Shown: positions 3 to 23,696 of the stretch, piece after piece | Numbering within the stretch: the first letter of the stretch is position 1 | Layout of the letters: the number at the start of each line of letters is the position of its first letter | Source of the DNA: an archaeon | Lineage (GTDB): Archaea > SpSt-1190 > DYHY01 | Assembly: GCA_043803745.1 (NCBI GenBank) | Contig: JAZDJS010000002.1 | Location: 16,581-80,580, forward strand | DNA length: 64,000 nt | Direction of reading: 5' to 3' | Made by a program: the position numbers and the translations under genes | The notes under the pieces: generated by a model | What the model was told of the DNA's origin: nothing | The model's database searches: none | The model's input: the letters and a program-made list of their open reading frames with translations, nothing else

Positions 3-2081
3 GTCAAGGTCAAGGTTTGCCTTAACCCCGGAAACAAGTTCAGGAATGAAGCCGACGGAATCGACAGTCACAAGGCCGCCGCCTCCGCCTCCGCCACCCC
101 CTCCGCCGGCACCACCACCCCCGCCGCCCTCCCCGCCACCGCCGGAAATAGTGGTCGTGGTAACTGGCGGAGCGCCCGAGCCTCCGATGCCATATGTGCT
201 AAGATGGCTCAAGTTGGCCCAGACATAGCTTCCGGCTGAATTGACGCCGGAGCCATAAACCTGGATTGTCTCGTTACCGCAGGAGATTGCCCCGGAATTC
301 GGGAGGATTGCCCATTCCCCGCTTGCCTTGCAATAGCGCAGGATTCTCAGGGATTCGGGGAGTATTTCGCTTATCCCGTCCCCGTCGGAATCAAGGTCCG
401 AAACTGAATAATGCAGCTTCAGCAGGAAATATGCATAGGAAGAGTCGGAAAGGTTCCCTGAAAGATTGAAATCGAAGAACCTGTCGACTGAGACAAGCCC
501 CCCGAGCCAGTATTCGAAGGAAGTGTCGTTCGTCTCCGGCTCAAGAGCGCCCGGGTTGTTGCTTGAAGTTATTGTGAGGTTCGCTTTTCCGGATGCGAGC
601 GGCAAAACTTCCAATTCTGCTCCGGTGGCAATCAGCGATTCGTTGAAGAATGCCGTCGTGTTTGCAGTCAGGTTTTTCCCCGACTGGCTTGCAGGGAAAT
701 ATGCATAGAAAATCCTCTCGAAAACTACCTTGTTCGAAAGGGAATCCTGGGCGGCGATTGTCAGGTTGTTCTTCCCGGAAGCATAGTCAAGGCTCCTCGA
801 GAAGTTGCCCGTGCCTGAAAGGGAGAACCCAAGGGCGCCGTTGAGGTAAACCTGCGCTGAAACCGGGTTGTCATCGGAAATCGTGCCCTCGATTGTGTTG
901 TTGAGGAACGAGACATTCGCTCCCTGGGCCGGCTTTGAGATGCTTATCTGCGGAGCCTGGATGTCGACGAAGAATTCAGTCCAGCTAGAGCCGAGATTCA
1001 GCGAGGAATCCCAGGCATAGACCGCAAGCGAGTGCGCCCCGTGGGAAAGCGCGCCAATTGTCATGTTCATGCCCGAAAGGCTCATGTTGGGTCCGCCGTC
1101 AAGAGAATATTTGGCAATCGGAACCGGTTCGCTGGCAGACCAGCTCAGCTGCACCGGAGTTCCCGGGCCAAGCATTCCAGCCGGAGAATAGATTGCTATT
1201 GTCGGAGCCGTAACATCCCCCCCGGTCTGGTATGAAAAGGTTGCCGTTGCGCTCCCTATCGTTCCCTCCGAGCTGCTTGCATAGAAAATCAATTTGTGGA
1301 CTCCCTGCGAAATGTTTGTGATGTTCTGCTCAAAGGGACTGGTTGGAGCGAAAGGACCGACGCTTTTTCCGTCAAGGGCATACCAAATCTGGGAGATTTC
1401 TGGGAGATTTGAGACAATTCCCCTGAACCTCACAGGAAGGATTGCAGTCTTGAAAAGGTCGGCAGGGGTTTCAATTGAAACCTGCGGAACGGAGAACGAG
1501 ACTGTCTTTCCGAAAATTTCCCAGTTGCCGTTCCGGTCGTCCGACCAGAGGACGAAAGCGGTGTTGTTCGAAAACCTGACTGACGGATTCTTGGCGCGCC
1601 CAGAACCTCCGGCTATGTTGGCTGAGGTTCCGGAGTAAAGCGTTCCATCGGAGGATTTGAAGAGGCCGTAGTAAATTGCCGGCATCCCTTCCTTCTCAGT
1701 GCTTATCCAGGCGAGATGGATTCTTCCAAGCGGGTCAAGGAAAGCCGAGATTTCGTGGATTGCGCCCTTGCCGGTTGTCACAAGGGTCGCGTTCAGAATG
1801 GACTTCCCATTGGAATCGTATTTTTTCATCAATATTGCCGAGCCGGTTGCCGAAGGAATTGTTGTCGTGGTGGCTGCAAAGGATTTTATCTCAGTCAGGT
1901 TCTGCACAAAGATAACATATGCGTTGTCGCTGCTGTCGGAAAGTATCTGCTGATTGCTGCCAGTTCCAGCAACGATTTCAGGCGACCACTCCCCGGAGCC
2001 GAGCGCGAACCCGGCTGAAAAAAGCGAAGTGAGCAGGATGACTGAAACCAGGAGCAAGAAAGCAAGCAGAGATTTTCTCAT
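3..2081 (-). CDS. Cell-surface protein, 3' end outside window: signal peptide, ~3 propeller blades, ~3 Ig-like domains, PGF-pre-PGF-like domain, poly-Gly linker
   Basis: Not in the ORF track because it has no stop in the window. Manual translation: MRKSLLAFLLLVSVILLTSLFSAGFA; LDPLGRIHLAW; VLWSDDRNGNWEIF; DVTAPTIAIYSP; YSLDGG; WANLSHLSTYGI; GGGGEGGGGGGAGGG. Its ATG overlaps the TGA of the upstream giant gene (ATGA). Confidence 0.85.
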   Translation of the reverse strand, partial: MRKSLLAFLLLVSVILLTSLFSAGFALGSGEWSPEIVAGTGSNQQILSDSSDNAYVIFVQNLTEIKSFAATTTTIPSATGSAILMKKYDSNGKSILNATLVTTGKGAIHEISAFLDPLGRIHLAWISTEKEGMPAIYYGLFKSSDGTLYSGTSANIAGGSGRAKNPSVRFSNNTAFVLWSDDRNGNWEIFGKTVSFSVPQVSIETPADLFKTAILPVRFRGIVSNLPEISQIWYALDGKSVGPFAPTSPFEQNITNISQGVHKLIFYASSSEGTIGSATATFSYQTGGDVTAPTIAIYSPAGMLGPGTPVQLSWSASEPVPIAKYSLDGGPNMSLSGMNMTIGALSHGAHSLAVYAWDSSLNLGSSWTEFFVDIQAPQISISKPAQGANVSFLNNTIEGTISDDNPVSAQVYLNGALGFSLSGTGNFSRSLDYASGKNNLTIAAQDSLSNKVVFERIFYAYFPASQSGKNLTANTTAFFNESLIATGAELEVLPLASGKANLTITSSNNPGALEPETNDTSFEYWLGGLVSVDRFFDFNLSGNLSDSSYAYFLLKLHYSVSDLDSDGDGISEILPESLRILRYCKASGEWAILPNSGAISCGNETIQVYGSGVNSAGSYVWANLSHLSTYGIGGSGAPPVTTTTISGGGGEGGGGGGAGGGGGGGGGGGLVTVDSVGFIPELVSGVKANLDLD

Positions 2082-5000
2082 TCCGCAGGCACCACCTGCG
2101 ATGGAAGGAACCATCGCTCTTGGTACACGTCAGTGTCCGCATAAGCTGTTTTCAGAGCATCCAGGCTCATTGCCGAGGGTATTATCCCGGTGTTGAACTC
2201 GAAGATGAAGACGATCCCCTCGGGACCGGCTGCCAGGTGGTCGAAGGGACCCTGCTCAACATCGATTATGTCGTAGTGATTCAGGAGCTTGAGCGGCGCC
2301 CAGATTGCATAGTAGGTTGCATACCAGGTCGGTATTATGACTGCTGCGGGAGGGAAGGCAATGCTTGCAACCGAGAAGCCGATGCCGATTCCCGTTGCCG
2401 CGACATCCTCGTAGGCGGCCTTCTTCATTATCGGGTCCTCGGTTGTCCTTGCGGTGTAAATCTGGTAGCCCATTTTCGCAACATCAAGGCCGAGCATCAC
2501 TGCGTCGGTAACTCCGACATGCACGAACTTTCCGGGCACGTTCGGCGGTAGGAATGACCTTTGGAAGATTCCGAAGGAAACCTTCCCTCCGGAAGCGCCC
2601 TGCAAGGTGTTCTTGATTGTCCGCATCTTCCATCCGAACTTCCCGAAATCCGCAATCGCGCTCTTGTGGTCGTAGAGATAGTTCGCTATCTTGTAGATTA
2701 TTACCTGCTTGTAATTGCCGGTGATAAGGCTCGAGACTATTATCGACTCCGCATTGGTCACTGTCGCGACGGTCCCAGGGGCGAATTTGGTTATTTCCGC
2801 CTTGATTGAATTGAACCTCGGGTCAGTCAGGAACTCGGAAGTGCTGATGTCGTTTATCGTGACCGTTATCGCCCGGACAATCGTTGTCTCAAGGTCGGGC
2901 GTGGAGGTCTTCTTCGCATCGTTCCTTGTCACCGAGTATTTCGTCTGGTTGTTCTTGGTTATCGTGACGAACGTTTCGTTCGACGTTGTCGAAGCCGCTG
3001 CGAACGGCTCCATGTCGAGGGCGCCGAAGGAACTGTAGAACCTGGTCGTCCTCCTGGTTTCTTTGATTGAGTTCCTCGAGGGCAGGCTGTTGTTGAGCGA
3101 ATCGTTGTAGTAGAATTCCCATTTGGGGGAAACCGCGCTCCAGTTCAGGGAGCTTGCTGTGAAGGAAACGTCCGCTTCCGATGAGCCTATCAGGACAACC
3201 CCGGAATAGCCGCCCAAGGAGGTTGAGTTGAAGAACTGCGTTACGTTCTCAGGCGCGCCATTGTAGACGAAGAGCTTGTACGGGCCGACTGTCGCGTTCC
3301 CTGTCGGATATGTCTGGATGTTCGCCGGCAGGGCTGAATTGATTGCCGAGACGTTCGCCGAGAGGTTCGTGACAAGCGAGAATGAATAGTCGTCGGTTGT
3401 CTTGGCAAGCGCGCCCGCCTTGATGTTCCGGGCGTTCATCGGGATTCTGGATATTTTCCCGCCGGTGACGTTGATGTAAATCGGAGAAAGGTAGATGACG
3501 TAGCCGGGTTTCTCGATTTTCTCCTTAGGGAGGTTTATCGTGAATTCGTAGGAATGCCTTGTCGTTACATATTCAAGGGTCCGCCCGATTGAGATTCCGC
3601 TCATGACCCCTGTGCCCCAGGAGAATTCCCCGTCATAAAGGGCATAGTCGATTGCCGGGACAAGATAATTCTCGGAATCGTTTGAAACCGATTTGTCGAG
3701 CGCGGGGTCGACTGAAATCTGGAGGGTTACGTGCTGGTTTTTTCCGGGCTCGAGCTTTATCGGGGCTTCGGCATACCAGTATTTCATCTCAGGGTCCCCG
3801 ATGCTTGCGGCTTCGTAAGTCGGCACCCAGCCCTTGCCCTCAACCATGTATGCGTCCCTGCCGTTCCCGAGCATCACGGTATAGGCGCGTCCGGTCAAAT
3901 CATAGCTTATCTTGTAAGTCGGATAGGGGTCAAGGTTGCTGTAGTAGAAATAATCCCGGGTATAGCTTATCGAATAATGCCTGTCGCCGCCCTCGTAAAA
4001 GACGACGCCGTCGGTCGTGTTCTCAACCCGGTAAATCCAGCTGTCAAGGCCGTAGTTCACCCCTTCTTCAATCGTGTTTGTCCTTGATGCCAAATCGGTC
4101 GGGCTGTTCCTGACGCCGTTCTCCCCAAGCTCCACAACCTCGTTCCTGTTGCAAGAGGTCAAGCCCCAGTCGCCGCAGTCGATTCTGTGGGAATGCCCGT
4201 CAAGGAACCAGAGATATTGCTTCGATTCATAGTACAGGGTTCCGGGCCTGAAAACATCCGACCACGGGTAGGAAGTCTCAAGGTTCGCGTTCGGGAGCAG
4301 GTCGTAGGTGTCAATTATCCCGTCCCCGTCGCTGTCCGAGCGGATTGGGTTAGTCCCTTTGGCAAGCTCCTCCCCGTCGCTTATCCCGTCATCATCGCTG
4401 TCAGCGTCAAGCGGGCTTGAATAGCTTAGCTCTTCCTCGGGGAACTCCCTGTTAGTGAAAATCCACCTTCCCCATCCCTCTTCCGCCCCATCCTTGATGC
4501 CGTCGGAATCGGTGTCAGTGTTGCTGTAATTGAGCCCCTGCTTGTAGGCAAGAATCCTGTGAACCTCGACATAATCGAAGCCGGGAACGTTCGGGCCAAT
4601 TGTTATGTCATAGACGCCTCCTGGGAGGTATCCTTCGTAGAACGTCCTGTGCTCGGGAACAAGATATGTGTTGCCTGCTATTGTTGTCCCGTTGCCATCC
4701 GAAATATTGAAGTAAATGCTTCCCTCAGTATCCAATCCTGTGAGGTTGAGCCGGTACATTCCCCCGAAGTTCAGCGTTAGCGTGACGTTGACCGAGGTTG
4801 CCCCGTAAAGCTTGACGCCCTTCACATCCCTGAATCCGTTCCAATAGGTGAGGACATCGCCGATTGTCGGGGCATAGTCGCCCAGTTCGGCCGAGTCGGC
4901 GAGGAACCAGCCCTTGAGCTCGTCCTTGTCCCAGATCCCGTCGTTGTCGGAATCCTTCCCTCCGACGGGGTTCGTTCCGTAGATGGCGACTTCTTCCCCG

Positions 5001-8000
5001 TCCCAGACGCCGTCCGAGTCCGAGTCGAAGTTCAAGGGGTTCGTTTCGCTCTGCGCTATCACCGTCCCGTTCGAAAGATATTTGGTGTTCCAATAGGGCG
5101 CCCCGTCCCGGGCAAAGTTCTCCCCTTCCCAGGCCTGCATCAGCCCGTCGGTCGCGCACCAGACTCCCCAGCCCGCAATCGAGCCCGAGGCTCCCGGCTT
5201 TGTCGAGTTGAAGCACCAGCCATCCTTCCATCCGTCCGGAAGGCCGTCGTTGTCGCTGTCAACATCAAGGGCGTTCTTGAAATCGTCATAATCGTCAGTT
5301 GTCTGGTTCCAGTTCCGTTCAGTCCCGTCAATTATCCCGTCCCCGTCAGTGTCGGCAGCGTTCCGGTCGGTCTCCCCCGCATCGACAATTCCGTCGTTGT
5401 CAACATCCTCGAACTTGTCAAGGAGGCCGTCCTTGTCAGTGTCTGCGTTGCTCGGGTTCGTAAGGGCAAGGTCCATGTTATAGGTTTCCTTGTGGTTCGA
5501 TGCGTAAGCTGAAATAGGATTCGCAGAAAGGTCGGCGAAGGTTCCCGTCCTGAAAACGGTATAGTTGTTTCCGCCGGTCCTGACAAGTATGTGCGTCCCG
5601 TTGTCATAAACCGGATAGCCTTCGGGAGTGTCGACCTGGACGTTCCTTCCAAGGAGGGTGTAGTTGAGCGGAAGCTGCGCAGCTGTCAGGTTTGCGTTGG
5701 GGATGGCAAGGACATATCCAATGAGCGCCGCGCTGCTGTTTGTGAGCGAGCGCTGGACTGCGATTCCCGTTCCAGCAGCCCAATAATTGAATGTTCCAGT
5801 CGTTGAATTGTATGCCGCGTTCGTCCTGAATACGACCCGGGCTTCCGTCCAGTCGGTCGAGGTGTCGTTGTCCGAGTCAGTATCGAAAACATTGAGCAGC
5901 TTGTCCCCGTCCGCATCCTTGTCAAAGGAGGCTTCCTCGCCGTTCAGGATTCCGTCGCCGTCCGCATCCTTGTCAAGGAAGTTCGGAATGCCATTGTGGT
6001 CAGCATCGTTATACCCGAGGGCGACCCTTGCGCCGTCGGAAAGCCCGTCGTTCAGCGAGTCTTTCTTCAGCGGGTCCGAGACCATCAGCAGGTTTCCCGT
6101 TTCCTTGCCGGCTGAATTGTAGGCGGGGACCGTCCCGTGCCCCGTCTCAGCATAGTACGCGTCCGAAGCAAGGGAGAACGTTGTCGGGCTTCCATAGACG
6201 GGGTTCTTGTCTCCCGGGACGTCCATCGCAACATATGGCGGGATATATGAGAAAATTGAATGCGTGCTTGTGCCTAGTGCGTTGTAAGCCCTCGCTGCGA
6301 CAAATGCATAGTCTCCGGACGGATGCCAGGAAATCCCGAAAAGGCGAGAGCTTGTTGACGGAATCTTGCTTGTGAAGTTGTTCTCAGCCGAATCGAAGAT
6401 TATCGCCTTCCCGTTCGAGTTCGGACCGTCGTCATCAGTCACAATCAGCGCCTCCCCGGTTCTCGGGTTCCATTCAACATCCTTTGCATCCCCGAGGCAG
6501 CTCCATATGCAGGGAATCTTGTATGAAAGGCAGGTTCCGTTCCAGTAGCATTTGTAGAGGTATTTCTCGTTGCCCGCAGCAGTTCCGAGCATAAGGCCTG
6601 CATCGATTTGCTTGTTATTCCGGGAATCTGTGCTTCTTTTCCAGTCTGCTGAAGTGATTTTTGTCGGCGCCGGAGAGAGCGTGAGATTGAACTGCCAGCT
6701 TTCGAATCCGGCATTATACTGGAAAACGAAAGCTTTGCCCGTTGAAGTCGTGATGAGCACGTAGACGTTGTCAATGTAGCTTACGTCAGTATAGCTGTAT
6801 CCCGGCCCGCCAAGGCCGGATGGTCTTGTTATGTCCGAGACAATTCCGGATGCCGCGTCGTATCTGAGTATTTTCCCGTCCCCGACAATCACAGCAACAT
6901 CCCCGTAAGAGGGAAACTCTACGGAGGAAAGATTCGCAGTTACCCCGCTTGAGACAATCGAAACGTTCTTGGTTGTCGCGTTGTATTTCAGGACTGTTCC
7001 GACGTTTCCCACAAGAATTGCCCGGTCCCCTGACGGGCTCCACGCTGCGCCCTTTATGCAATAGGATCCGGGAATCGTCAGGCTTTCTAACCGATTGTCC
7101 GGATAAACAAGGTAGCCGTCCCCAACCCAGCAGAAAATATCGTCGATATGCTCCAGTCCGATGGCATACTCCCCGCTTGGGTTCCATGCAACCTTTTCCA
7201 TTATGTGGTTCAGGCTCGAGTATTTTATTATGCCGTTCAGGACCGGCTGCTTGGCATAGGCCGCTTCATACCCCTCCGGGCTTGTTGCGACTCCGACATA
7301 GTTTGAAAAAGTCCCGATTTGCGTGTCGGTAAGGGCAAGCCCCTTGATTCTTCCAAAGGGGACGAGGTTCTTGCTAATGCTGGCCCCGATGTCAACCGCA
7401 ATCCAGGAATTGTCGTTCTCAGGGGCGGAATAGTCGATGTCTGATGCCCCGTAATAGTAGACGACAAGGCGCTCGCTTCCGGATGTGTTTGTGAAAAGCT
7501 CGGTTGAATTGTCCTTCCTAACCTCCCGTCTATACTGGCCGTTGCCCGGAGTTCCGGAGGTTTCAGTGAGAACCGCCGTAATGTTTGCCGGGCTTCTGAC
7601 CGTGACATAATAGGGATAATCCATTTCATAAATGCTAAAGTTAGTTCCAGGACCGGTAAAGCCCCAGGAATAAGAACCGCCCATGAACGCGCTGTAATAA
7701 TAGACTGTTACGGATTCCTGGGCAGTCAGGTTCGTTCCAAGAACGACAAGCCCGTTCATTCCTTGCTTGATCCACCAGTATTGCCCTGGAGACGGAGGAT
7801 AGACCGGATTGTTTGTCTGGTTTGTATAGCTGAAACCCGAGGAGTAAGAAGTAACATTAATTATCGAGGAAACCCGGTATGCCAGCCGGTAAGCAGAGCC
7901 AGAAAGCAATTCTTCCCGGATTATTCTCCCGCCGTTGACATCATCCGCATCAGTCCTGAACTCTATCCAGTCCCCTTCGCTGTCCGGAAGCCCGTCGCCA

Positions 8001-9973
8001 TCGGTGTCCGGGTTCGTCATGTTCGTTCCCTTCGCCGGTTCAACCCCGTCGTAAACCCCGTCCCCGTCAGTGTCAGGATTCAGCGGGTCGGTGTGTTGTG
8101 TGTTTATTTCATCCCAGTCTGAAATCAAATCACCGTCAGTGTCAGCGGAAGACGGGTTCGTCCCGTAGAGCTTCTTCTCATCAGAATCTGAAAACCCATC
8201 CCCGTCGCTGTGGTTCGATTTCGGGTTCGATGTTGTCCAGTAATTCTTCCCACCGACCAGGATGCTCCAGCCATAGACCTCGGCAAAGTCGGAAAGGCCG
8301 TCGTTGTCCCAGTCTGGATTCAGGGGATTCGTTCCGGCAGTCGTTTCCCCGATAGAGACTATTGTCCAATTCCCGAGCATTGTTATGCTCCCATCCCAGA
8401 GCCCGTCCCCGTCGGAATCCGGGTTCGTCGGGTCTGTTTCTCCGGCGTCAAGGAGTCCATTCATGTTCGCGTCCTCGAAGCTGTCTTGGCGCCCGTCATC
8501 ATCAGTATCGAATTTGACCGGGGAAATCCGGTCAGTCCCGTTCCGGTATTCGATTGAATCCCCTATTCCGTCCCCATCCGAGTCGGAATCTTTTGCGTTT
8601 ATCAGCCCGTCCGAATCGCAATCGACATCGGGCCCGCAGTTGTCGGTGAACATCATTGATTCGTAATTCTCAGCCCCGTCCTTGACTCCGTCCCCATCAG
8701 TATCCGGATTGTTGAGAAGGGTTCCAATCGTGTATTCAGTTAGATCGGAAAGCCCGTCCCCGTCAGTGTCCGGGTTCGAGCCAAGCGTCCCTAGAATTGA
8801 TTCGCCAATTGGGATTACCGTCCCATTTGCAAGCCTCCTGAACGTTCCGTCCCAGAGGCCGTCCCCGTCAGAATCGTTCGCAAGCGTCTTCTTCCCGTTT
8901 CCGAGCTCTTGGAGGTTCGTTACCCCGTCAAGGTCAAGGTCGCCGGAAGCGCCGTAATTTCCGACTGATGAGGTTGCGTCAAGCCCGTTCCAGATTTCCC
9001 ATCCGTCCGGAAGCCCGTCCCCGTCAGTATCGGCTTTGTTCGGGTCGCTTTCCCCGCCATCTATTTTCCCGTTAAGGCCCCAGTCTTCCCCTTCCCAGAT
9101 CTGGACAAGTCCATCAATCTCTGAAATATTCCAAGTCCAGGTGCGGTTCCGTTCATCATAGAACCATCCGTCAACCCATCCGTCCGGAAGCCCGTCGTTG
9201 TCCGAATCGAAATCGTTCTGGTTCGTCTTGGTTGCCGGGTCGACATCCCAGTAGCTTGAATTCGTGCTGTTGGCATATCCCATTTCAACTGCATCGACAA
9301 GCCCGTCCCCGTCGGAATCAAGCTCGTCAGTTCCATAGCCAGTCCTCTGATTCCCCTTGTACAAGCGGAAGGTAACGTCAGCCAGGTTCTGGTATGCGAA
9401 ATACAGGTTGCTGTCAGTTGCGGAAATCACCGGGTTTATTGCCTTGTTCGATGTTGAAACGTTCCGCATATCCTCCCAGCGCCCGTCCGCAAAAGTCCGG
9501 TAGAAAATTCCCTTCTTGAGAACCTGCCAGACTGAATTTAGAGCAGTTCCCCCGGCAAGCTTTGGGTTCGTTGAATCAAACGATTCGTTCGAGATGATCC
9601 CCGCCGGGTAAATTCCCTTCACAATCGCCTCAATGCTGAATACCGCGCCGTTCAGGAATTGCCAGGCTGCCGCTTTCGCAGTCCCGTAGATGGAGGAAAC
9701 CGGATTCGCAGCGTTTTCCTTCAGCAGGCTCCCGCTAGTCTGGTCGTCCAGATTTTGGGTCAGGCTTTTCTCGAAAACGTTCGTTCCCTCCTGCCAGGTA
9801 AGCTCGACTGTCCCGTTGTCCGAAATGTAAAAGGAAGGCGAAACTGAGTCAGCCGGGCCGTTTGTGATTTGCGTTTCCCCGTTGAAAGTAACTGCCGCAA
9901 GTGAAGGGGTTATTAGCAACAATAGGAGAAGGAAAAAAATCAATCCTACTCCAAAGTGGTTTAATTTTGCCAA
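2078..9973 (-). CDS. Giant (~2630 aa) secreted/surface protein with dozens of DxDxDG Ca-binding (TSP3/binary-toxin-like) repeats, a WD40-like propeller and a hydrophobic C-terminal domain
   Basis: ORF 2078..10099. Likely TTG start at 9973, after GGGGA, giving a signal peptide (LIFFLLLLLLITPSLAA). Repeats such as DTDGDGLSD..E..GTNP; WNPSG/WSPSG/WHPSG blades. Confidence 0.9.
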   Translation of the reverse strand: MAKLNHFGVGLIFFLLLLLLITPSLAAVTFNGETQITNGPADSVSPSFYISDNGTVELTWQEGTNVFEKSLTQNLDDQTSGSLLKENAANPVSSIYGTAKAAAWQFLNGAVFSIEAIVKGIYPAGIISNESFDSTNPKLAGGTALNSVWQVLKKGIFYRTFADGRWEDMRNVSTSNKAINPVISATDSNLYFAYQNLADVTFRLYKGNQRTGYGTDELDSDGDGLVDAVEMGYANSTNSSYWDVDPATKTNQNDFDSDNDGLPDGWVDGWFYDERNRTWTWNISEIDGLVQIWEGEDWGLNGKIDGGESDPNKADTDGDGLPDGWEIWNGLDATSSVGNYGASGDLDLDGVTNLQELGNGKKTLANDSDGDGLWDGTFRRLANGTVIPIGESILGTLGSNPDTDGDGLSDLTEYTIGTLLNNPDTDGDGVKDGAENYESMMFTDNCGPDVDCDSDGLINAKDSDSDGDGIGDSIEYRNGTDRISPVKFDTDDDGRQDSFEDANMNGLLDAGETDPTNPDSDGDGLWDGSITMLGNWTIVSIGETTAGTNPLNPDWDNDGLSDFAEVYGWSILVGGKNYWTTSNPKSNHSDGDGFSDSDEKKLYGTNPSSADTDGDLISDWDEINTQHTDPLNPDTDGDGVYDGVEPAKGTNMTNPDTDGDGLPDSEGDWIEFRTDADDVNGGRIIREELLSGSAYRLAYRVSSIINVTSYSSGFSYTNQTNNPVYPPSPGQYWWIKQGMNGLVVLGTNLTAQESVTVYYYSAFMGGSYSWGFTGPGTNFSIYEMDYPYYVTVRSPANITAVLTETSGTPGNGQYRREVRKDNSTELFTNTSGSERLVVYYYGASDIDYSAPENDNSWIAVDIGASISKNLVPFGRIKGLALTDTQIGTFSNYVGVATSPEGYEAAYAKQPVLNGIIKYSSLNHIMEKVAWNPSGEYAIGLEHIDDIFCWVGDGYLVYPDNRLESLTIPGSYCIKGAAWSPSGDRAILVGNVGTVLKYNATTKNVSIVSSGVTANLSSVEFPSYGDVAVIVGDGKILRYDAASGIVSDITRPSGLGGPGYSYTDVSYIDNVYVLITTSTGKAFVFQYNAGFESWQFNLTLSPAPTKITSADWKRSTDSRNNKQIDAGLMLGTAAGNEKYLYKCYWNGTCLSYKIPCIWSCLGDAKDVEWNPRTGEALIVTDDDGPNSNGKAIIFDSAENNFTSKIPSTSSRLFGISWHPSGDYAFVAARAYNALGTSTHSIFSYIPPYVAMDVPGDKNPVYGSPTTFSLASDAYYAETGHGTVPAYNSAGKETGNLLMVSDPLKKDSLNDGLSDGARVALGYNDADHNGIPNFLDKDADGDGILNGEEASFDKDADGDKLLNVFDTDSDNDTSTDWTEARVVFRTNAAYNSTTGTFNYWAAGTGIAVQRSLTNSSAALIGYVLAIPNANLTAAQLPLNYTLLGRNVQVDTPEGYPVYDNGTHILVRTGGNNYTVFRTGTFADLSANPISAYASNHKETYNMDLALTNPSNADTDKDGLLDKFEDVDNDGIVDAGETDRNAADTDGDGIIDGTERNWNQTTDDYDDFKNALDVDSDNDGLPDGWKDGWCFNSTKPGASGSIAGWGVWCATDGLMQAWEGENFARDGAPYWNTKYLSNGTVIAQSETNPLNFDSDSDGVWDGEEVAIYGTNPVGGKDSDNDGIWDKDELKGWFLADSAELGDYAPTIGDVLTYWNGFRDVKGVKLYGATSVNVTLTLNFGGMYRLNLTGLDTEGSIYFNISDGNGTTIAGNTYLVPEHRTFYEGYLPGGVYDITIGPNVPGFDYVEVHRILAYKQGLNYSNTDTDSDGIKDGAEEGWGRWIFTNREFPEEELSYSSPLDADSDDDGISDGEELAKGTNPIRSDSDGDGIIDTYDLLPNANLETSYPWSDVFRPGTLYYESKQYLWFLDGHSHRIDCGDWGLTSCNRNEVVELGENGVRNSPTDLASRTNTIEEGVNYGLDSWIYRVENTTDGVVFYEGGDRHYSISYTRDYFYYSNLDPYPTYKISYDLTGRAYTVMLGNGRDAYMVEGKGWVPTYEAASIGDPEMKYWYAEAPIKLEPGKNQHVTLQISVDPALDKSVSNDSENYLVPAIDYALYDGEFSWGTGVMSGISIGRTLEYVTTRHSYEFTINLPKEKIEKPGYVIYLSPIYINVTGGKISRIPMNARNIKAGALAKTTDDYSFSLVTNLSANVSAINSALPANIQTYPTGNATVGPYKLFVYNGAPENVTQFFNSTSLGGYSGVVLIGSSEADVSFTASSLNWSAVSPKWEFYYNDSLNNSLPSRNSIKETRRTTRFYSSFGALDMEPFAAASTTSNETFVTITKNNQTKYSVTRNDAKKTSTPDLETTIVRAITVTINDISTSEFLTDPRFNSIKAEITKFAPGTVATVTNAESIIVSSLITGNYKQVIIYKIANYLYDHKSAIADFGKFGWKMRTIKNTLQGASGGKVSFGIFQRSFLPPNVPGKFVHVGVTDAVMLGLDVAKMGYQIYTARTTEDPIMKKAAYEDVAATGIGIGFSVASIAFPPAAVIIPTWYATYYAIWAPLKLLNHYDIIDVEQGPFDHLAAGPEGIVFIFEFNTGIIPSAMSLDALKTAYADTDVYQERWFLPSQVVPAE

Positions 9974-10140
9974 TTTTCCCCAATCAGGGCTCGAGGGCGG
10001 TTTTTCATTTAAATCATTTACCAGTTTTAGCCCGTTCGAAGCGAAAAAAGGGCCATTTTTCCATAAGATTCCCTTCCAAGCAAAACCGGCAAATGACATT
10101 CCAAAAAAACTTTTATAAGAAAGTTCAGGTGCTCCCTGCC

Positions 10141-10764
10141 ATGGGGTGCCGCATCCTTGTTGTGGGCGCGGGCAGCGATAGTGTTACGCTGAATTTTCTG
10201 GCTGGAAGCGAACCCGACCCCGCCGAAGCTGAAAAAGCCCAGATAAACGCATACCGGGAATTCATTGGGCGCAATCCGCCGTTTGACGAGGTTGCTGCAA
10301 TAGATTCCTATCGACGCAGCATCGAAAAGCTGAGAGAAAAAGGAATCGACCCGAAAGTGCAGTCGATTCTTGCAAGGGTGCCAACGGAATTTCTCCGTGA
10401 GCGGGAGGAAGCTGATGATAACTGGGACGCGCTTGTTTCAGGAACGCCGTTTGACGTTGTATTCGTCCCGCACGTCGTTGGATATTACACCGGAGCCGTC
10501 CGCTCATACCTACAGGCAAGGTCGCTGCTCAGGAACGCCGCCCGCTGCTGTAGGGACGGAGGTTCCCTGATAGCACTTGACTGCGACAAGGATTTCAGGC
10601 TTCCGTCCGGGGGAAGCCCCTCAGGTCCGCGGGAATACAAGCTAGGCTCCCTCCGGGAAACATATGAATTCCTCTGTCCGTCCGGCTTTTTCATCGAATC
10701 AATTAGGGATGGAAGTTCCGAATCAGTCCCGACCGATGTCGTCCTTTACAGGAAAGTCGCCTGA
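10141..10764 (+). CDS. Class I SAM-dependent methyltransferase-like protein
   Basis: ILVVGAGSD (motif I), FDVVF, RCCRDGGSLIALD. TTTTATAA about 25 nt before ATG 10141. Confidence 0.65.
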   Translation: MGCRILVVGAGSDSVTLNFLAGSEPDPAEAEKAQINAYREFIGRNPPFDEVAAIDSYRRSIEKLREKGIDPKVQSILARVPTEFLREREEADDNWDALVSGTPFDVVFVPHVVGYYTGAVRSYLQARSLLRNAARCCRDGGSLIALDCDKDFRLPSGGSPSGPREYKLGSLRETYEFLCPSGFFIESIRDGSSESVPTDVVLYRKVA

Positions 10765-13186: not shown

Positions 13187-14413
13187 TTAGGCAGAAAACG
13201 CTCGCTTTTCGGGTTTTTCGGAGGTTTTCCCCCTCTTTCCCCTGAATGCGAAGCTTCCGGCGGTCGAGATTACGTTGGTCGCAAGTATTGTCAGAAAGAC
13301 CAGCTCCGGGAGATTCGGCATGGAAATGCCGTTCTCCATCGGAAGATATGCGAGGACTGCCGCGGCAAGGCCCCTCGGCATCATTGAGACGACTGCCGAA
13401 GCATTGGCCCAGAGCCGTTTTTCCACAAAGCCGACTACCCTGGTCGCCAGGCCCCTGGCGGCGATTATTGTCGCAAGTATCGCGCTTCCCATCAGGAGGA
13501 CGCCGAAGCCGATTGACCTGATGTTGAATATGAGTCCGAGGTAGACGAAGAAGAATGTCCTGACGAAGAAGGTCACCTCCGATTGGAACGACTTGAAGTT
13601 TTCGCCAAGGCGCAGGTCCGTCTTCATCCCCAGGCGTTTGGTTATGTATTCGATGTTCCCGAGTATCAGGCCGAAAACTAGGACGGCTATTGCCCCGCTC
13701 CCCCCGCTTGCTTCAACCAGGGGATAGAGGATGAAAAGGGTAGCAATCGTCAGCATGTATCCGAACGGCTTTCCGCGCATTTTCCTGAGCAGCAGCATCC
13801 ACAGGCCGGCGACAATGAGTCCCATCACGCAGGCGACGGCGAAGGCCGCCGCGAAGGTCTTGAGCGTCGGCCCGAAAGAAACTTCTCCGGAGCCGATTAT
13901 TTTCAGGACGGTCATTGCGGTGATTATGCACATCGCGTCCGTTAGCGCCGACTTCAGGCTCAGGACGATCTTGACCCGCTCATCAAGGTTCAGCTTCGGG
14001 ATTGTCGATATGACTATCGGCGAGCTGGTGCCGCCGACTATCGCGCCGAGGAGGATTCCGCCAAGTAGGGTCCAGCCGAACGCGACATGCATCAGGAAGC
14101 CGACTCCCGCGACCGTGAGGGAAAAAACCAGCAAAGTGAAAAAGGCCGTCAGGGGGAACGCCCCGAGGACATTCAGTATTTTCAGGTTCAGCCCGCCGTC
14201 GAAGAGGATTATTATGAGAGCAAGGGTTCCCACCAGCGGAGCGAACTTTGCGATTGTCGAGCCTTCGGTCGCCTTCATGAAACCGAAAACCGGACCCAGA
14301 AGGATTCCCGCGCCCATCAGTATGAGGGTGTCGGGTATCTTGGTTTTCTCGAAAAAAAGGCTGCTGAGGAAACCGAGGACTATTATCAAGCCTATTGCCA
14401 GTAATTCAATCAT
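13187..14413 (-). CDS. Cation:proton antiporter, CPA1 (NhaP2-like)
   Basis: ~12 TM; IILFDGGL, GGTSSPIV, FFVRTFFFVYLG. The usual LESALTD reads LKSALTD. Confidence 0.9.
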   Translation of the reverse strand: MIELLAIGLIIVLGFLSSLFFEKTKIPDTLILMGAGILLGPVFGFMKATEGSTIAKFAPLVGTLALIIILFDGGLNLKILNVLGAFPLTAFFTLLVFSLTVAGVGFLMHVAFGWTLLGGILLGAIVGGTSSPIVISTIPKLNLDERVKIVLSLKSALTDAMCIITAMTVLKIIGSGEVSFGPTLKTFAAAFAVACVMGLIVAGLWMLLLRKMRGKPFGYMLTIATLFILYPLVEASGGSGAIAVLVFGLILGNIEYITKRLGMKTDLRLGENFKSFQSEVTFFVRTFFFVYLGLIFNIRSIGFGVLLMGSAILATIIAARGLATRVVGFVEKRLWANASAVVSMMPRGLAAAVLAYLPMENGISMPNLPELVFLTILATNVISTAGSFAFRGKRGKTSEKPEKRAFSA

Positions 14414-14559: not shown

Positions 14560-16119
14560 ATGGCGGAAGCCCTAGTCTCTTTCATCCCAACCCTGCTCGA
14601 GCTGCTGATAATAGCCGCCATTGTCTCCGTTTTCACGCAAAAATACGCCAAGCTACCTTACACGGTCGCCCTCCTTCTGACGGGGCTGCTGGCTGCCGCA
14701 ATGGGACTTGTCCCGAGAATCCTGCTGGAAAAGGACCTGCTTTTCGCACTTTTCCTCCCGCCGCTCATTTTCGAGGCAACCTTGAACACGAGCCTCTCGC
14801 ATTTCAAGGAGAACTTCCGGCCAATCCTGATATATTCGGTTTTCGGGGTCTTTCTCTCGTCATTTATTGTCGGCTTTCTGGTTCACAAGATTTTGGGGGT
14901 TCCGCTTTTCGCGGCAATGATTTTCGGCTCCCTGATATCGGCGACAGACCCGGTCGCGGTAATCTCCCTGTTCAAGCAGGTGCGCGTCCCGCAGAGGCTT
15001 TCGGTGATAATGGAAGGGGAGAGCATACTGAACGACGGGACATCGATAGTCATCTTCACCCTCTTCTTGGCGATAATGAAGACCGGGGAATTCAGCTTTC
15101 TTGGGTCGGTGTTTTCGTTCTTCAAGGTGACTTTGGGGGGTGTCGCGGTTGGCGTGGCAATAGGCTATCTTGCCTCGGAGATTTTCAAGAGGACGGACGA
15201 CCATCTAATCGAAACCGTGCTGTCGGTCATACTTGCATACGGCTCTTTTTTCGTTGCGGAGACCCTCGGGTTTTCCGGGATTGTCGCGGTCGCCCTAACG
15301 GGTCTTTTGGTCGGAAACCCGAAAGGAGAATATCATTTCTCCCCCCAGACGAAGACATTCCTCCTGCCTTTCTGGGAATTCCTTGCGTTCATCATAAATT
15401 CCCTGATTTTCCTGATAATAGGCGGGAACATAAATTTCTCCCTTTTCGCCGAAAGGGCCTGGTTGATTCTCGTGACAATCGGGGTCGTCGTTTTGGCGAG
15501 AGCCGCCGTAGTATACGGTCTGGGAAACGCCCTGAACACGAGAAAACCAGAGGGAGCAATCCCATTTTCGTGGCAGCACGTTATTTTCTGGGGAGGCCTT
15601 CGCGGGGCAATACCCCTGGCTCTTGTCCTCTCCCTTCCGGACACTTTCGCATTCAAGGACCTTTTCTTCCATGTCACCCTGGGGGTGGTTTTCTTCACGA
15701 TAGTTGTCTGTGGGACGACAATCAAGCCACTGATAGATTTCCTCAGGATAGTGAAAAAATCCGAAATCAGGGAGCGCTACCTGAACGCGATGGCGGTTAT
15801 TTCCGCCTCCGCAAGGGCGCTGCGCGCGGTAAGGAGAATGAAACTGCGCGGGGAGCTGCATGAGAAAACCTACAAAAGGGTGAATGCATATATCGAGAAG
15901 CGGAATGAGAAAGCCAAGGCGGAGTCGGACAGGTTGATCTCAGGCAACAGGGAGCTTTTGGATTATGAGGCGCGGCGCGGGATAAAGAAAGCGCTTGTTG
16001 AGCTGAAAAGCGGGCTCATGGACGCCAATAGGCAGGGGCTTCTGTCTGAAGGGGGCCTTGACCAGGAAATCTCCAGAATAGAGACTGAGCTTTCGAAAGC
16101 CCCCGGAAAGAAATCCTGA
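14560..16119 (+). CDS. Na+/H+ antiporter, CPA1 (NhaP/YjcE family)
   Basis: FLPPLIFEA, SATDPVAV, EGESILNDG, WGGLRGAI. Confidence 0.92.
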   Translation: MAEALVSFIPTLLELLIIAAIVSVFTQKYAKLPYTVALLLTGLLAAAMGLVPRILLEKDLLFALFLPPLIFEATLNTSLSHFKENFRPILIYSVFGVFLSSFIVGFLVHKILGVPLFAAMIFGSLISATDPVAVISLFKQVRVPQRLSVIMEGESILNDGTSIVIFTLFLAIMKTGEFSFLGSVFSFFKVTLGGVAVGVAIGYLASEIFKRTDDHLIETVLSVILAYGSFFVAETLGFSGIVAVALTGLLVGNPKGEYHFSPQTKTFLLPFWEFLAFIINSLIFLIIGGNINFSLFAERAWLILVTIGVVVLARAAVVYGLGNALNTRKPEGAIPFSWQHVIFWGGLRGAIPLALVLSLPDTFAFKDLFFHVTLGVVFFTIVVCGTTIKPLIDFLRIVKKSEIRERYLNAMAVISASARALRAVRRMKLRGELHEKTYKRVNAYIEKRNEKAKAESDRLISGNRELLDYEARRGIKKALVELKSGLMDANRQGLLSEGGLDQEISRIETELSKAPGKKS

Positions 16120-18014: not shown

Positions 18015-20477
18015 CTATTTTCTTCCAACTTCCCTTACTTCCTCGGAAATTTCCTTCGGGATGCTCCCTTCCGGGGCACCTCTTCCTTCATCGACTGCAA
18101 GGGCGCGGGCCCTCAGAAGGAAAATCCCGGCAATTGCGAGGATGCAGACAAGGAGACCCGGCACCAGGAACCTTGCGATTTCCTGGAGGAACGGGAATTT
18201 CCTTGAGAGCGGAAGCGGCTGGGGGGTTGAGAGCTCTTCGGCAAAATCGTCAAGAACCGAAAGGTTCACAAAAGCGGGCAGGGAATTCGTGGTTTCTTTC
18301 GGAGGGCTTGTCGTCGTTATCCTGGACGGGATGCTTGTGGTTGATGAAGATACCGGAGCAGTTGATGTGGAGCTTGTTGTTGTTCCCGGAAAAACCCCGC
18401 TCCCGCCCCCTCCCGAAACCGAGGTTGTTGTCGGAGGTGAGGTTGTAGTTGTCGTCGTTGCGGGAGGACAGGTCGGACAATTGGTCCCCCCGCAATCAAC
18501 ACCCTCCTCATCATAATTCTCAACCCCATCTTCGCACTGCTCTTCAAGGGTATAGTTGCTGAAGAAGGGAACGGTGACGTTGAACTCCTCCGCAGCCTGG
18601 TTGAACGACTGGTCCGCGCACCCCCCGCAGTCGGCGCCGTCTCGTTTCACAACCGGGAACGAAAAATTCGCCCCGAGGAAGGTTATCCTCGCGCTCCGGT
18701 TGAACTCCGGGATTGCCGAGCTGTTTATGAAAATCGAGTTGTTTGCGACAATTATCAGCCCGGAAAGGTTCCTGCTTTCCGAAAGGTTCAGGGGCTCCGC
18801 GAAGACTAGTTTCCCGTGACCGTTTGAGAAAGTTACGTTGCTTATGTTCGCAAGAACCGAGTTGTTGTACTGGGAGAAGTTCGTTGTGCCGGGACCCCAC
18901 GCGCTTTCATTCAGCGTTATGTTGACGGGCGGTTCCGCAGGCGGTTCCGTAAGCGTTGAGAAGCTGAACGTCCCGTTCCTTGCGCAGTTCCCCGAGGAAT
19001 CGCAGGAGGTTGCGTTGAAGTAGTAGGCGGTTTCCGGGGAAAGCTGGGCGAGTGAAAGGGTTTGCGAAAGGGAGAAACTTCCGGAAGAGGAAACGTTCCC
19101 GAAGGCAATTGTTGTTCCCCAAGCAAGCGTAAGATTGGCGCTTTCATTCGTCTCAACGGTGATGTTCGCGCTTGAGATTCCCGCAGAGGAATCCGCTGTC
19201 AGGATTGCCGGGGGCGTGCTGTCGCCGGCTCCTCCAGCAGTCCTGTTCGAGAGCGGGATATAGTCGATTACGGAAGAGCTGTTGTAAATCGAATCGCAAA
19301 TCCCATCTTCCCCCCCGTCAGCGCAGGTGTCGGAAAACCCGTTCCCGTTCGTGCGCCCCCAGTAGTTCCCGCCGTAGCAGCCCCCTCCGGAAATGCCCGT
19401 CCTTGAGCAGTTCTGCGTCGTGTTGAAGCTGTTCGTGCCGTTGCCGTTCGACGCGGAGGAGCTTGTGTTGAAGAAATTGTTGTAGAACGAGTTCCATCCC
19501 GCCGAGCCGTAGAGGACGAACGGATATGTGTAGTTCCAGAACCGGTTGTCCCGGAAGACGGTGTCCTTGAGCGAAATCGCCGAAATCCCGTAGCTGGTTC
19601 CAACCCCGCTCGAGAAATTGTTCCCCTCTATTGTGTTGTTCTGCGCGGAATCGGAAAAGCTTATCCCGTCCCGCGTCCGGATAATCGAGTTCCCCGAGAT
19701 ATTTGCCGTCCGCATCCCGTAGAGGTTCATTGCCGAGCCGTTCAGGTCCGTGAAATTGTTCCCGGTAATGTTCGTCAGGCTGACGACAAGGGAGCTTGAA
19801 ATTGTTATTCCGGAGCCGAGAATCTGCTCGAAGGTATTCTGGGAGATTGCCGAGGAGGTGAGTTGGGTGTCAATGTCGATTTCCGGATACCCCGTCGAGC
19901 GGTTCCTTGAGAAATAGTTCGAGGAAATCGTGCTGTATCTGACGCTTCCCGTCGGGAAGCTTATTGCCCGGAGGGTCTGGTTCACGAACCGGTTCCCGCA
20001 AATGAAGTAGTAGTATGCGCTCTTGGCGACAATGCCATCCCCGTTCTCGGTGAAATTGTTGTAGGTTATGTTCAGGTAGTCGTTGTTCAGGTTGTCAATC
20101 CCGTATGTGTTGTTGAAGAACGTGTTGTTCGTGATGTAGTCCTTGTTCGAGAACTCCGAGAACGAGGCGTAATAGCCCCACTTGTAATTCCTGATTGTGC
20201 AGCCGGTGACCGTTGTGTTCGAAACGCTCTGGAGCGTAACCGCCTTGTAGTTCAAGGAGGCGTTCTCTCCCTCAATTACCGAGCCGTTGCAGTCAAGGGT
20301 TCCTCCAGTGGCATTCAGTATGAAGCGGACCTTCGAATAGGCTCCGGTGCAGAGGCTGAAACTGCCGCTGACCCCGACCTGGCTGTCGTTTGCGGGCGTT
20401 GTGCAAGAGGAAAACGCCGGAAAGATGACAAGCAGCGTGAAAACAAAGACTGCGGGAAAAATCCGGTTCACGAACAT
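18015..20477 (-). CDS. Surface glycoprotein: NosD/CASH parallel beta-helix, Fn3-like domain, Cys motif, Thr-rich stalk, C-terminal TM
   Basis: Signal peptide; ITNNTFFNN repeats; GGNYW; LSPETAYYF; CEDGVENYDEEGVDCGGTNCPTC; TM plus charged tail. Confidence 0.88.
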   Translation of the reverse strand: MFVNRIFPAVFVFTLLVIFPAFSSCTTPANDSQVGVSGSFSLCTGAYSKVRFILNATGGTLDCNGSVIEGENASLNYKAVTLQSVSNTTVTGCTIRNYKWGYYASFSEFSNKDYITNNTFFNNTYGIDNLNNDYLNITYNNFTENGDGIVAKSAYYYFICGNRFVNQTLRAISFPTGSVRYSTISSNYFSRNRSTGYPEIDIDTQLTSSAISQNTFEQILGSGITISSSLVVSLTNITGNNFTDLNGSAMNLYGMRTANISGNSIIRTRDGISFSDSAQNNTIEGNNFSSGVGTSYGISAISLKDTVFRDNRFWNYTYPFVLYGSAGWNSFYNNFFNTSSSASNGNGTNSFNTTQNCSRTGISGGGCYGGNYWGRTNGNGFSDTCADGGEDGICDSIYNSSSVIDYIPLSNRTAGGAGDSTPPAILTADSSAGISSANITVETNESANLTLAWGTTIAFGNVSSSGSFSLSQTLSLAQLSPETAYYFNATSCDSSGNCARNGTFSFSTLTEPPAEPPVNITLNESAWGPGTTNFSQYNNSVLANISNVTFSNGHGKLVFAEPLNLSESRNLSGLIIVANNSIFINSSAIPEFNRSARITFLGANFSFPVVKRDGADCGGCADQSFNQAAEEFNVTVPFFSNYTLEEQCEDGVENYDEEGVDCGGTNCPTCPPATTTTTTSPPTTTSVSGGGGSGVFPGTTTSSTSTAPVSSSTTSIPSRITTTSPPKETTNSLPAFVNLSVLDDFAEELSTPQPLPLSRKFPFLQEIARFLVPGLLVCILAIAGIFLLRARALAVDEGRGAPEGSIPKEISEEVREVGRK

Positions 20478-20645
20478 GAATTACCTCTTCCAGTTCTTCA
20501 ATTGGGTTCTCGGCGATTTTTATATCCTTTCCCCCGTTAGATTGTCCCTTTGGCGGGAGAGCCGGCAAGCCCGTTTCCCGCCGCAAAATCCGCTAAAAAG
20601 CATTTATACTGACTGCAGTGACATTCAAGGGAAGGGTTGGCTAGG

Positions 20646-23600: not shown

Positions 23601-23696
23601 GGGGCATACTATTATTTCGTCATCCTCGGCAAGGAAGGTAAGCCCAAATACCGTTTCAAGGGCAAGCACAGGAAAGAGGAAGGGGAAGGGCTCTAG
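20646..23696 (+). CDS. Ig-like repeat surface protein with PGF-pre-PGF domain and C-terminal TM
   Basis: Signal peptide; VDATAPTVTL / DTTAPSVSL repeats; TPGFSTFAI; TM followed by a Lys/Arg tail. Confidence 0.9.
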   Translation: MSKEVNLKRFLGSAIFLFAFVFAAGFAATTVDLLSPPDNNWTNLDNSTTPFIFQANDTADIILNCSLTVAGANVSANASVFNATPTTFYANSSFALGASQWNVTCYNTTSGISAARTLNFDSINPVAASVSPDNYFNSSSRNVTFQLQGVDNLNLTGLTLYGNWSSGWHANATNSTPVNGTTWTVNVTGIPDGIYTWSAYAADAAGNWNFSANRTLVVDATAPTVTLTAPVNATNSSIPAVQINYTVSDAIDSAGVWCKPFILNGSTWTNLSYFPANTVNYTVAGDDGTYLWNYQCQDSAGNAAFATANRSFTIDTAFPGIAVVSPAIGENLTVSAMAFNVSVSDISTSLVWYSLLNATSDVIVQNTTMTGGPVYYTASLPSNFSLYPPGMYQIIAYANDSVGHANATGILPFGLAAVNATQIEGMVSNAIFTANFTNTNGTEFSGDIQEDTEYNLVFNVTGSGIVITLGNFSAADYGQASELNATAQVDVTGLESALGIDFYSFGWLDIGDFVSSDYYDYGKIQINSTADLAYYLGGSKDDPTSTLASACNATFSNYPCYNVSGSATTIYVSAFSGGGVGNDTTAPSVSLTTPAGSAHIRGTYDLTGTYTDGIGVTNVTYYYTSFSNLIGYSTTSPHTVSWNTALVSDGTYTIIVNATDAKGNKNSTNATGVVIDNTAPTVTAFSLSTTSAYSGNTITATCTGSDASGTVATTVGNLDYSTVGTRQASCTITDQAGNTAVSYLSYTILASSSSSAIASGTYRISENIPEGTVSIVIDRVIKGQLAKFAVIPDALRFDVTAIELETLRDLVGVKINIRGASAPSLPLPNGSGKVRAYLEISRVNFEDSAVGFARIRFSVPKEWVAANLVDPAKIFLYRLEGNSWNKLSTSLLSQDSQEYVFEAQTPGFSTFAIAGAVNAPETAAPAPGETPENQPPQQEGATTTVETTTTSSSMQAAGIPANASAGKPAYIGIVAILLVVALVAGGAYYYFVILGKEGKPKYRFKGKHRKEEGEGL

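Follow-up and report, generated by a model that had tools for sequence, protein, structure and literature searches.

A giant repeat protein and its partner are encoded by overlapping genes

We analyzed a 64,000-nucleotide stretch of archaeal DNA (referred to here as the window; G000:C2:16581-80580, from a genome of 1.23 Mb in 51 contigs that is 90% complete) and focused on two adjacent genes at its beginning, which encode a giant calcium-binding repeat protein (P0004, hereafter the giant) and a smaller protein (the partner). The N-terminal modules of the two proteins are predicted to close a single seven-bladed β-propeller between them. Two long open reading frames (ORFs) on the minus strand, to which all coordinates of the two genes and their features refer, span window positions 3-10099: one at 2078..10099, encoding 2673 amino acids from its first ATG, and one at 3..2114 that runs off the edge of the window. 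The giant gene, as we read it, occupies 2078..9973 and encodes 2631 amino acids from a TTG at 9973 to a TGA stop at 2078-2080, the longest frame reaching the ATG at 10099. The partner gene lies at 3..2081, which covers residues 1-693 of 910; the remainder is found at G000:C2:15932-16582, before the window. The database record of the partner has the identical start and a length of 910 residues.

A model that had seen only the sequence had proposed (the original prediction) that the two genes are coupled by an ATGA overlap, that the giant starts at TTG 9973, and that both proteins carry signal peptides. All three proposals agree with our results. The junction reads GCG GAA TGA, with ATG AGA AAA in a frame shifted by one base, which places the overlap of the giant's stop with the partner's ATG (2081-2079) at 2078..2081. 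A start at TTG 9973 gives a classic signal peptide and a residue-for-residue alignment with the start of a full-length ortholog, P0008; the NCBI gene call begins 10 codons downstream of it. As judged by Kyte-Doolittle hydropathy rather than by a dedicated predictor, both proteins begin with basic residues followed by a strongly hydrophobic stretch, with 19-residue means of 2.59 in the giant and 2.60 in the partner. The signal peptide of the giant comprises residues 1-27 (9893..9973), ends in PSLA, and aligns with that of P0008, and the signal peptide of the partner comprises residues 1-28 (1998..2081). Because a convergent gene lies past the partner, the operon consists of two genes. Bicistronic and translationally coupled, they would encode the two subunits of a single cell-surface protein, each exported by means of its Sec-type signal peptide.

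Upstream of the giant gene, a TATA-box-like element, TTATAAAA, was read from the sequence at 10111..10118 (minus strand) and is its putative promoter element. On the opposite strand, a 287-codon frame with a GTG start (window 9901-10764, plus strand) overlaps the 5' end of the giant gene; it is without a family match and is probably not a gene.

The two N-terminal modules share one blade type

To characterize the N-terminal regions, we used a blade profile hidden Markov model (HMM) of 53 positions, built from 47 repeats (14 from P0009 and 33 from P0005, P0006, P0010, and P0011), with E-values calculated at Z=1. The whole N terminus of the partner matched the HMM with an E-value of 9.8e-16, that of the giant with 2.8e-7, and that of P0008 with 3e-23. 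Single-blade values were 8e-7 and 3e-10 for blades 2 and 3 of the partner and 1.7e-7, 1.3e-6, and 2.2e-12 for blades 1, 3, and 4 of P0008, which also has four blades. No blades were detected in the remaining 2396 residues of the giant or 705 residues of the partner (E about 0.5). Direct comparison of the two N termini by BLASTP was not significant (E 0.068), and the shared blade type therefore rests on the profile; by this measure, the predicted blade counts, four for the giant and three of the same type for the partner, were borne out. Pfam returned no family for either module at E-values up to 1, BNR_4 (PF15892) included. When the profile was run against the whole genome, the partner alone passed (1 of 10,997 frames), so that no complete propeller of this blade family competes in the genome.

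The four-blade module of the giant covers residues 28-215 (9329..9892), as delimited by the HMM, the ortholog alignment, and the predicted interface residues described below. Its first element is an outer-strand piece, GETQIT, and its last is the third strand of blade 4 (VTFRLY). The three-blade module of the partner covers residues 29-197 (1491..1997); here, too, an outer-strand piece, PEIVA, comes first and the third strand of a blade (WEIF, in blade 3) comes last. Seven-blade units of P0005, inspected by eye, follow the same pattern, opening on an outer strand and breaking off at strand three of the final blade. Since both modules share this phase, each carries one N-terminal strand to spare and lacks one strand in its last blade. 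Each chain alone provides an incomplete ring: the blades of the partner are confined between the signal peptide and the first immunoglobulin (Ig)-like domain, and those of the giant between the signal peptide and the first TSP3 repeat.

Structural modeling of the partner agrees with this assignment. AlphaFold2, given a four-row alignment, folded its N terminus with a mean predicted local distance difference test (pLDDT) score of 76.7 and a predicted template-modeling score of 0.77 into 11 strands, which form three blades, the last without its outer strand; the first 13 residues were left unplaced. It aligns structurally with arcs from numerous solved propellers, with Z-scores of up to 11.9, including three-blade chains that oligomerize: 2yms (Z 10.5), Pizza3 (3ww8; Z 10.0), and the homo-oligomeric Kordia lectin 6htn (Z 9.5). 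The ESM Atlas model of the partner matches partial propellers with a template-modeling score of ~0.77. A sequence search of the PDB gave no match for the giant and only artefacts caused by the Gly linker (single-chain variable fragment linkers) for the partner, and profiles A4 and A5 returned nothing below E 0.03.

In databases, the partner module finds P0005 and P0006, both BNR_4 proteins that score above the cut-off (43.3 and 80.5 bits, respectively), and the giant module finds P0009, P0010, and P0011 in addition to the full-length P0008. The single-chain relatives usually hold seven blades or twice that number: 7+7 in P0005, 14 in P0006 and in P0009, and, by the HMM, seven in an archaeal protein of 476 residues. 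Among 16 complete ORFs in 29 loci, half (8 of 16) have six to eight HMM blades, four of them exactly seven, and two ORFs with lower counts (L024 and L033) show extra degenerate repeats by eye, up to seven. Positional orthology of the blades in single-chain relatives gave no position-specific signal (diagonal 0.16 versus 0.14 expected), so that this comparison is uninformative as to whether the giant corresponds to blades 1-4 and the partner to blades 5-7. The 476-residue protein is encoded in a tandem of three genes (350, 453, and 476 residues; G031:C13:2535-7755, comprising L004, L015, and neighbors), all of which carry the blade family.

A complex model predicts a closed 4+3 propeller

The original prediction held that four and three blades could close a seven-bladed propeller in trans, and proposed complex modeling as a check. 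We modeled residues 29-220 of the giant together with residues 29-200 of the partner in ESMFold2, using our own alignments, in three runs and with three controls. The hetero pair scored 0.92 in each of the three runs, and the best control scored 0.01. Of 157 solved complexes, 116 reach that mark, as do 2 of 215 mismatched pairs; these frequencies hold only roughly here because our own alignments were used. Contact agreement between the runs was at least 96%, the pLDDT of the partner was at least 83, and 186-188 confident contacts were found at the interface.

The contacts with the lowest predicted error connect residues 7-10 of the giant with residues 160-162 of the partner, and residues 9-10 of the partner with residue 173 of the giant. 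The most confident strand pairs are T-Q-I-T of the giant with W-E-I-F of the partner and I-V-A of the partner with D-V-T-F-R of the giant. In addition, the inner strands of blade 4 of the giant pack on blade 1 of the partner, and the inner strands of blade 3 of the partner pack on blade 1 of the giant. These contacts describe a predicted closed ring of seven blades with two reciprocal velcro closures, the arrangement that had been proposed. Outside the cell, the four N-terminal blades of the giant and the three of the partner would thus come together as one propeller, in which GETQIT, the first strand of the giant, would complete the last blade of the partner as its outer strand, and PEIVA, the first strand of the partner, would do the same for the last blade of the giant. 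With this reciprocal closure, blades 1-4 of the giant would be succeeded around the ring by blades 1-3 of the partner.

We consider it probable that a heteromeric 4+3 split propeller of this kind joins the giant and the partner. It is supported by three independent lines of evidence: blade counts that are bounded by flanking domains and sum to the family norm, the complex prediction, and the recurrence of the pair in a second genome.

A second giant-partner pair occurs in a distant archaeon

Whether orthologous pairs co-occur had been named as a further check. A blade-profile search of 401 archaeal genomes gave matches in 51, and among those loci we found one further genome with a giant-partner pair of four and three blades (G194; 2.4 Mb), an archaeon of another phylum-level group. 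The genes stand in the same order, giant then partner, and the ATG of the partner overlaps the stop of the giant by 8 nucleotides. Both pairs of known gene context are thus adjacent and overlapping.

The G194 giant is cut by two contig ends (G194:C84:3387-11060 and G194:C90:3-992; L044 and L045). Its larger piece is collinear with the window giant at 32-34% identity, and its C-terminal domain is homologous. Four blades follow a poly-Thr linker and directly precede the first TSP3 repeat, three recognized by the profile and a fourth, degenerate one by eye; ahead of them is an extra N-terminal region of ~290 residues that is Cys-rich and contains two Ig-like segments and the poly-Thr stretch. The G194 partner consists of a signal peptide, three blades, a CARDB domain (residues 178-280), and an end that resembles PGF-pre-PGF by eye, with no match to TIGR04213 at an E-value of 0.01. 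The blade HMM matches the giant with an E-value of 9.1e-18 and the partner with 4.6e-22.

A profile of the giant's C-terminal domain identified 2 of the 401 archaeal genomes, namely the window's own and G194. Each is the only one to match within its phylum, 1 of 17 genomes for the window and 1 of 61 for G194, the latter being the same 61 genomes as in the search of its class. Because this distribution is patchy, the pair seems to move between distant archaea as a unit. Alignments of the C-terminal domain searched against collections of genome and metagenome contigs gave no confirmed locus in any of four scans, a weak negative since G194 itself was not returned either. A search among shorter proteins yielded no partner homolog (0 of 428 candidates), and the whole partner retrieved a single, unrelated Ig-type match. 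In 40 relatives, the N-terminal modules gave chance-level matches only (3 of 40 and 2 of 40, E 0.002-0.006), none of them in the window's own family.

The giant carries calcium-binding repeats, and the partner carries a membrane-spanning tail

The assignment of the giant as a calcium-binding repeat protein, made from its sequence, was confirmed by its sole Pfam match, TSP3_bac (PF18884; E 1.3e-23, 82.9 bits against a gathering cut-off of 25, in six stretches), and by 26 D-x-D-x-D-G-like calcium-site motifs in five clusters. The first and largest cluster covers residues 219-670 (7964..9319), and further clusters cover residues 1511-1690 and 1820-1890, with a domain between them (4304..5443). 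A central repeat region (residues ~920-1250, 6224..7216) has the appearance of a separate WD40-like propeller; its repeats were read by eye, and the WD40 signal is limited to sub-threshold matches in P0008. The giant also matches the model of the gliding lipoprotein CglD (NF033765) with 223.6 bits, and the G194 giant does so with 177 bits. The window giant was not assigned to CglD, as its score is below the equivalog cut-off of 400 bits, the match is confined to the repeats, and the other domains differ.

Over its full length, P0008 is 44% identical to the giant. Identity rises to 52-64% in the last 150-180 residues, compared with 25-35% directly upstream, which makes the C-terminal domain (residues 2456-2631, 2081..2608) the best conserved part outside the repeats. 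It has no relative in Pfam, NCBIfam, or the PDB. Within it lies a hydrophobic stretch with a central PP (residues 2524-2564, 2282..2404), whose mean hydropathy is 2.01 in the giant (residues about 2524-2549) and 1.62 in both P0008 and G194, with an Asp inside the stretch in G194. The giant lacks a standard transmembrane (TM) anchor with a basic tail, as had been claimed, although this one hydrophobic stretch is present. Because the hydropathy falls to 1.62 in both homologs, it is doubtful that the stretch spans a membrane.

The partner is ordered as signal peptide, blades, Ig-like domains, a divergent PGF-pre-PGF-like copy, a Gly run, PGF_pre_PGF, a Thr/Glu-rich linker, and a TM helix. The Ig repeats and the Gly linker that had been read from the sequence were both recovered: the Ig-like region covers residues ~198-480 (642..1490), with a Big_7/Glucodextran_B domain at 377-452 (Big_7 E 7.3e-10 in Pfam) and weak Big_3_3 similarity, and the Gly-rich run lies at residues ~655-680 (42..119). 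The claim of a PGF-pre-PGF-like domain holds for residues 698-818, outside the window, where TIGR04213 matches with 58.9 bits (cut-off 28), and less well for the copy inside the window (residues ~500-650, 132..584), which is only weakly similar to the true copy (E 0.011). The tail, also outside the window, reads PTG...TM...RKK.

We also considered the partner as a PGF-CTERM/archaeosortase substrate, which was not supported: no PGF-CTERM family matched the full partner at E-values up to 1, and the sole exosortase-like match in the genome (L011, G000:C15:49635-50108, minus strand, 211 residues) scored 24.4 bits, under the cut-off of 25.7. Among 28 frames of the genome with a TM helix and a basic tail, no common C-terminal sorting motif was seen.

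In the window genome, the predicted ring would join a 2600-residue stalk stiffened by calcium-bound TSP3 repeats to a membrane protein, the partner, held by its C-terminal TM helix and RKK.

Alternative assemblies and orientations

Several observations weigh against a heteromeric ring. The single blades of the giant are weak (E 2.6e-4, 5.3e-4, and 0.019), its blade 2 is degenerate, and AlphaFold2 did not fold its N-terminal module (pLDDT 32.8 with a two-row alignment). Closed four-blade propellers of the hemopexin type exist in nature, and the giant module could close alone. The complex score may stem from a likeness to single-chain propellers, as the halves of split domains tend to pass such predictions, and it was compared with unrelated proteins, not with other partial propellers or with homo-oligomers (two giants with eight blades, two partners with six, or three with nine). 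The sample is small, with three giants of four blades each, two partners of three blades each, and two pairs. A search of 5.8 billion proteins, in which word-based matching can miss homologs of 30% identity, returned no partner ortholog, only the repeat relatives P0005 and P0006. Finally, according to a study on WD40 propellers, engineered fragments of three, four, and five blades gave homo-oligomers only, and attempts at seven-blade hetero-oligomers from three- and four-blade fragments never succeeded (PMC6805158).

The last point favors a different arrangement, in which the two proteins are co-expressed without sharing a propeller and each homo-oligomerizes, the giant as a dimer with eight blades and the partner as a dimer with six or a trimer with nine, which would equip each of the two surface proteins with a multivalent, lectin-like head of its own. 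The resemblance of the partner model to the oligomerizing three-blade chains 2yms, 3ww8, and 6htn speaks for it too, and the repeat phase suits homo-rings equally well. Such an arrangement leaves unexplained why both pairs have counts of four and three when single-chain relatives have seven, and why the genes are adjacent with overlapping stop and start codons in two distant genomes. Together with the confident prediction of the hetero model, with which no homo model was compared, this makes separate homo-oligomers unlikely in our view. Still less credible, to the point of being quite improbable, is that the modules are self-contained or degenerate, with a closed four-blade domain in the giant, an open arc resting on the adjacent Ig domain in the partner, and genes linked by shared regulation only. 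The giant is indeed least conserved in its N-terminal module (30-36% identical to P0008 versus 44% overall), blade 2 has decayed, and genes for other surface proteins (NosD/β-helix and Ig) lie nearby. However, no stable domain is known that consists of a three-blade arc whose edge is unpaired and whose N-terminal strand is unplaced, G194 retains the number and phase of the blades at ~30% identity, and 186-188 confident contacts are predicted at the interface.

A further question concerns which end of the fiber is attached to the cell. The partner had been proposed as the anchor, with the C-terminal tip of the giant pointing toward a host cell. The anchoring part of this proposal fits the window genome, in which the partner ends in a TM helix and RKK, and fails in G194, whose partner ends without a TM helix; tethering therefore cannot be the conserved purpose of the pair. 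The C-terminal domain of the giant, which is conserved and in part hydrophobic, could itself sit in the membrane, and the tip-toward-host arrangement is accordingly one of two orientations. In the other, the giant would be held in the membrane by this domain, and the propeller would be a distal head that recruits the partner as an accessory subunit. We regard this second orientation as possible, if somewhat doubtful. It would make sense of the strong conservation of the last 150 residues of the giant and of the 19-residue hydropathy peak within them, and of the G194 complex, which must be retained somehow. Against it stand the borderline hydropathy of the same stretch in P0008 and G194, with the Asp in the latter, and a giant C terminus that has neither a basic tail nor a family match.

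Relation to known propellers and putative role

Propellers are described in the WD40 study as almost always single-chain, and assembly of rings from incomplete pieces is established there (PMC6805158). The closest natural parallel to the predicted heteromeric 4+3 ring is Sec13, whose propeller is closed by a blade of Nup145C, Sec31, or Sec16, with a velcro strand across the chain boundary (PMC2922654). Both cases involve a propeller closed by blades of two different chains. The Sec13 system is 6+1, cytoplasmic, eukaryotic, and of the WD40 type, whereas the archaeal ring would be 4+3, extracellular, and of another blade family, with two reciprocal exchanges, and is so far predicted only. The homo-oligomeric propellers (WD40 fragments, Pizza/Cake, the nine-blade 2yms, and Kordia 6htn) resemble the pair in having three-blade chains of the size and shape of the partner module (Z 9.5-10.5), but all of them are homo-oligomers, whereas the window pair is predicted to be a heteromer. 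Single-chain seven-blade surface propellers (BNR_4 PF15892 or TIGR04275-like) share the blade family and phase with the pair and often carry Ig-like domains and a sorting tail after the blades; they differ in holding seven or 14 blades per chain, and the N termini of the giant and partner fall under every Pfam threshold. Myxococcus CglD and MtsD are similar to the giant in their long TSP3 calcium-binding arrays within a secreted, adhesion-type protein, the likeness of CglD being limited to the repeats, as detailed above.

A literature search by phrase, each combined with a further term, turned up no paper that speaks of a split, intermolecular, or heterodimeric propeller. The known natural hetero case is the single inserted blade of the Sec13 system, and a 4+3 assembly in trans, as modeled here, would be new. 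If correct, it would mean that an incomplete toroid can evolve into a specific joint that links two proteins through swapped strands, and oligomeric intermediates of the kind postulated in the evolution of propellers would have a living example. It would also show how a rare giant surface protein is joined to its partner in an archaeal genome that looks host-dependent. The two domains, of ~190 and ~170 residues, would be small and expressible, which would make the idea directly testable.

The shared propeller probably serves as a binding head as well, with adhesion or host contact as its putative function. A wider proposal is that a natural heterodimeric 4+3 propeller serves as both joint and binding head of a calcium-stiffened fiber, in a module that moves between distant archaea and could be a host-contact device in a lineage with no matches for ATP synthase or lipid synthesis; we believe and doubt it in about equal measure.

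Host dependence of the DPANN type was probed in the small window genome with three families only (ATP-synt_ab, PcrB, and MCR). The window genome gave no match to ATP synthase A/B (PF00006), GGGP synthase (PcrB, PF01884), or MCR, and ATP synthase A/B and GGGP synthase were found in neither of the two further genomes of its family (G001 and G003; the three genomes of the family are 90-94% complete). Both enzymes are present in G004, which belongs to the same order as the window genome, and in G194. The missing matches fit a host-dependent life of the window's family, as far as gene content can suggest it. As G194 has both enzymes, the module is not confined to host-dependent lineages.

Neighboring genes

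Two other putative surface proteins are encoded nearby: a NosD/right-handed β-helix protein of 820 residues at window 18015-20477 (minus strand) and a protein of 1019 residues at 20637-23696 (plus strand) with Big_3_3, Big_7, and Y_Y_Y-like Ig domains. Between these and the giant gene lie two adjacent, divergent genes for Na+/H+ exchangers (PF00999), at 13187-14413 on the minus strand (E 5.9e-34) and at 14560-16119 on the plus strand (E 4e-73).

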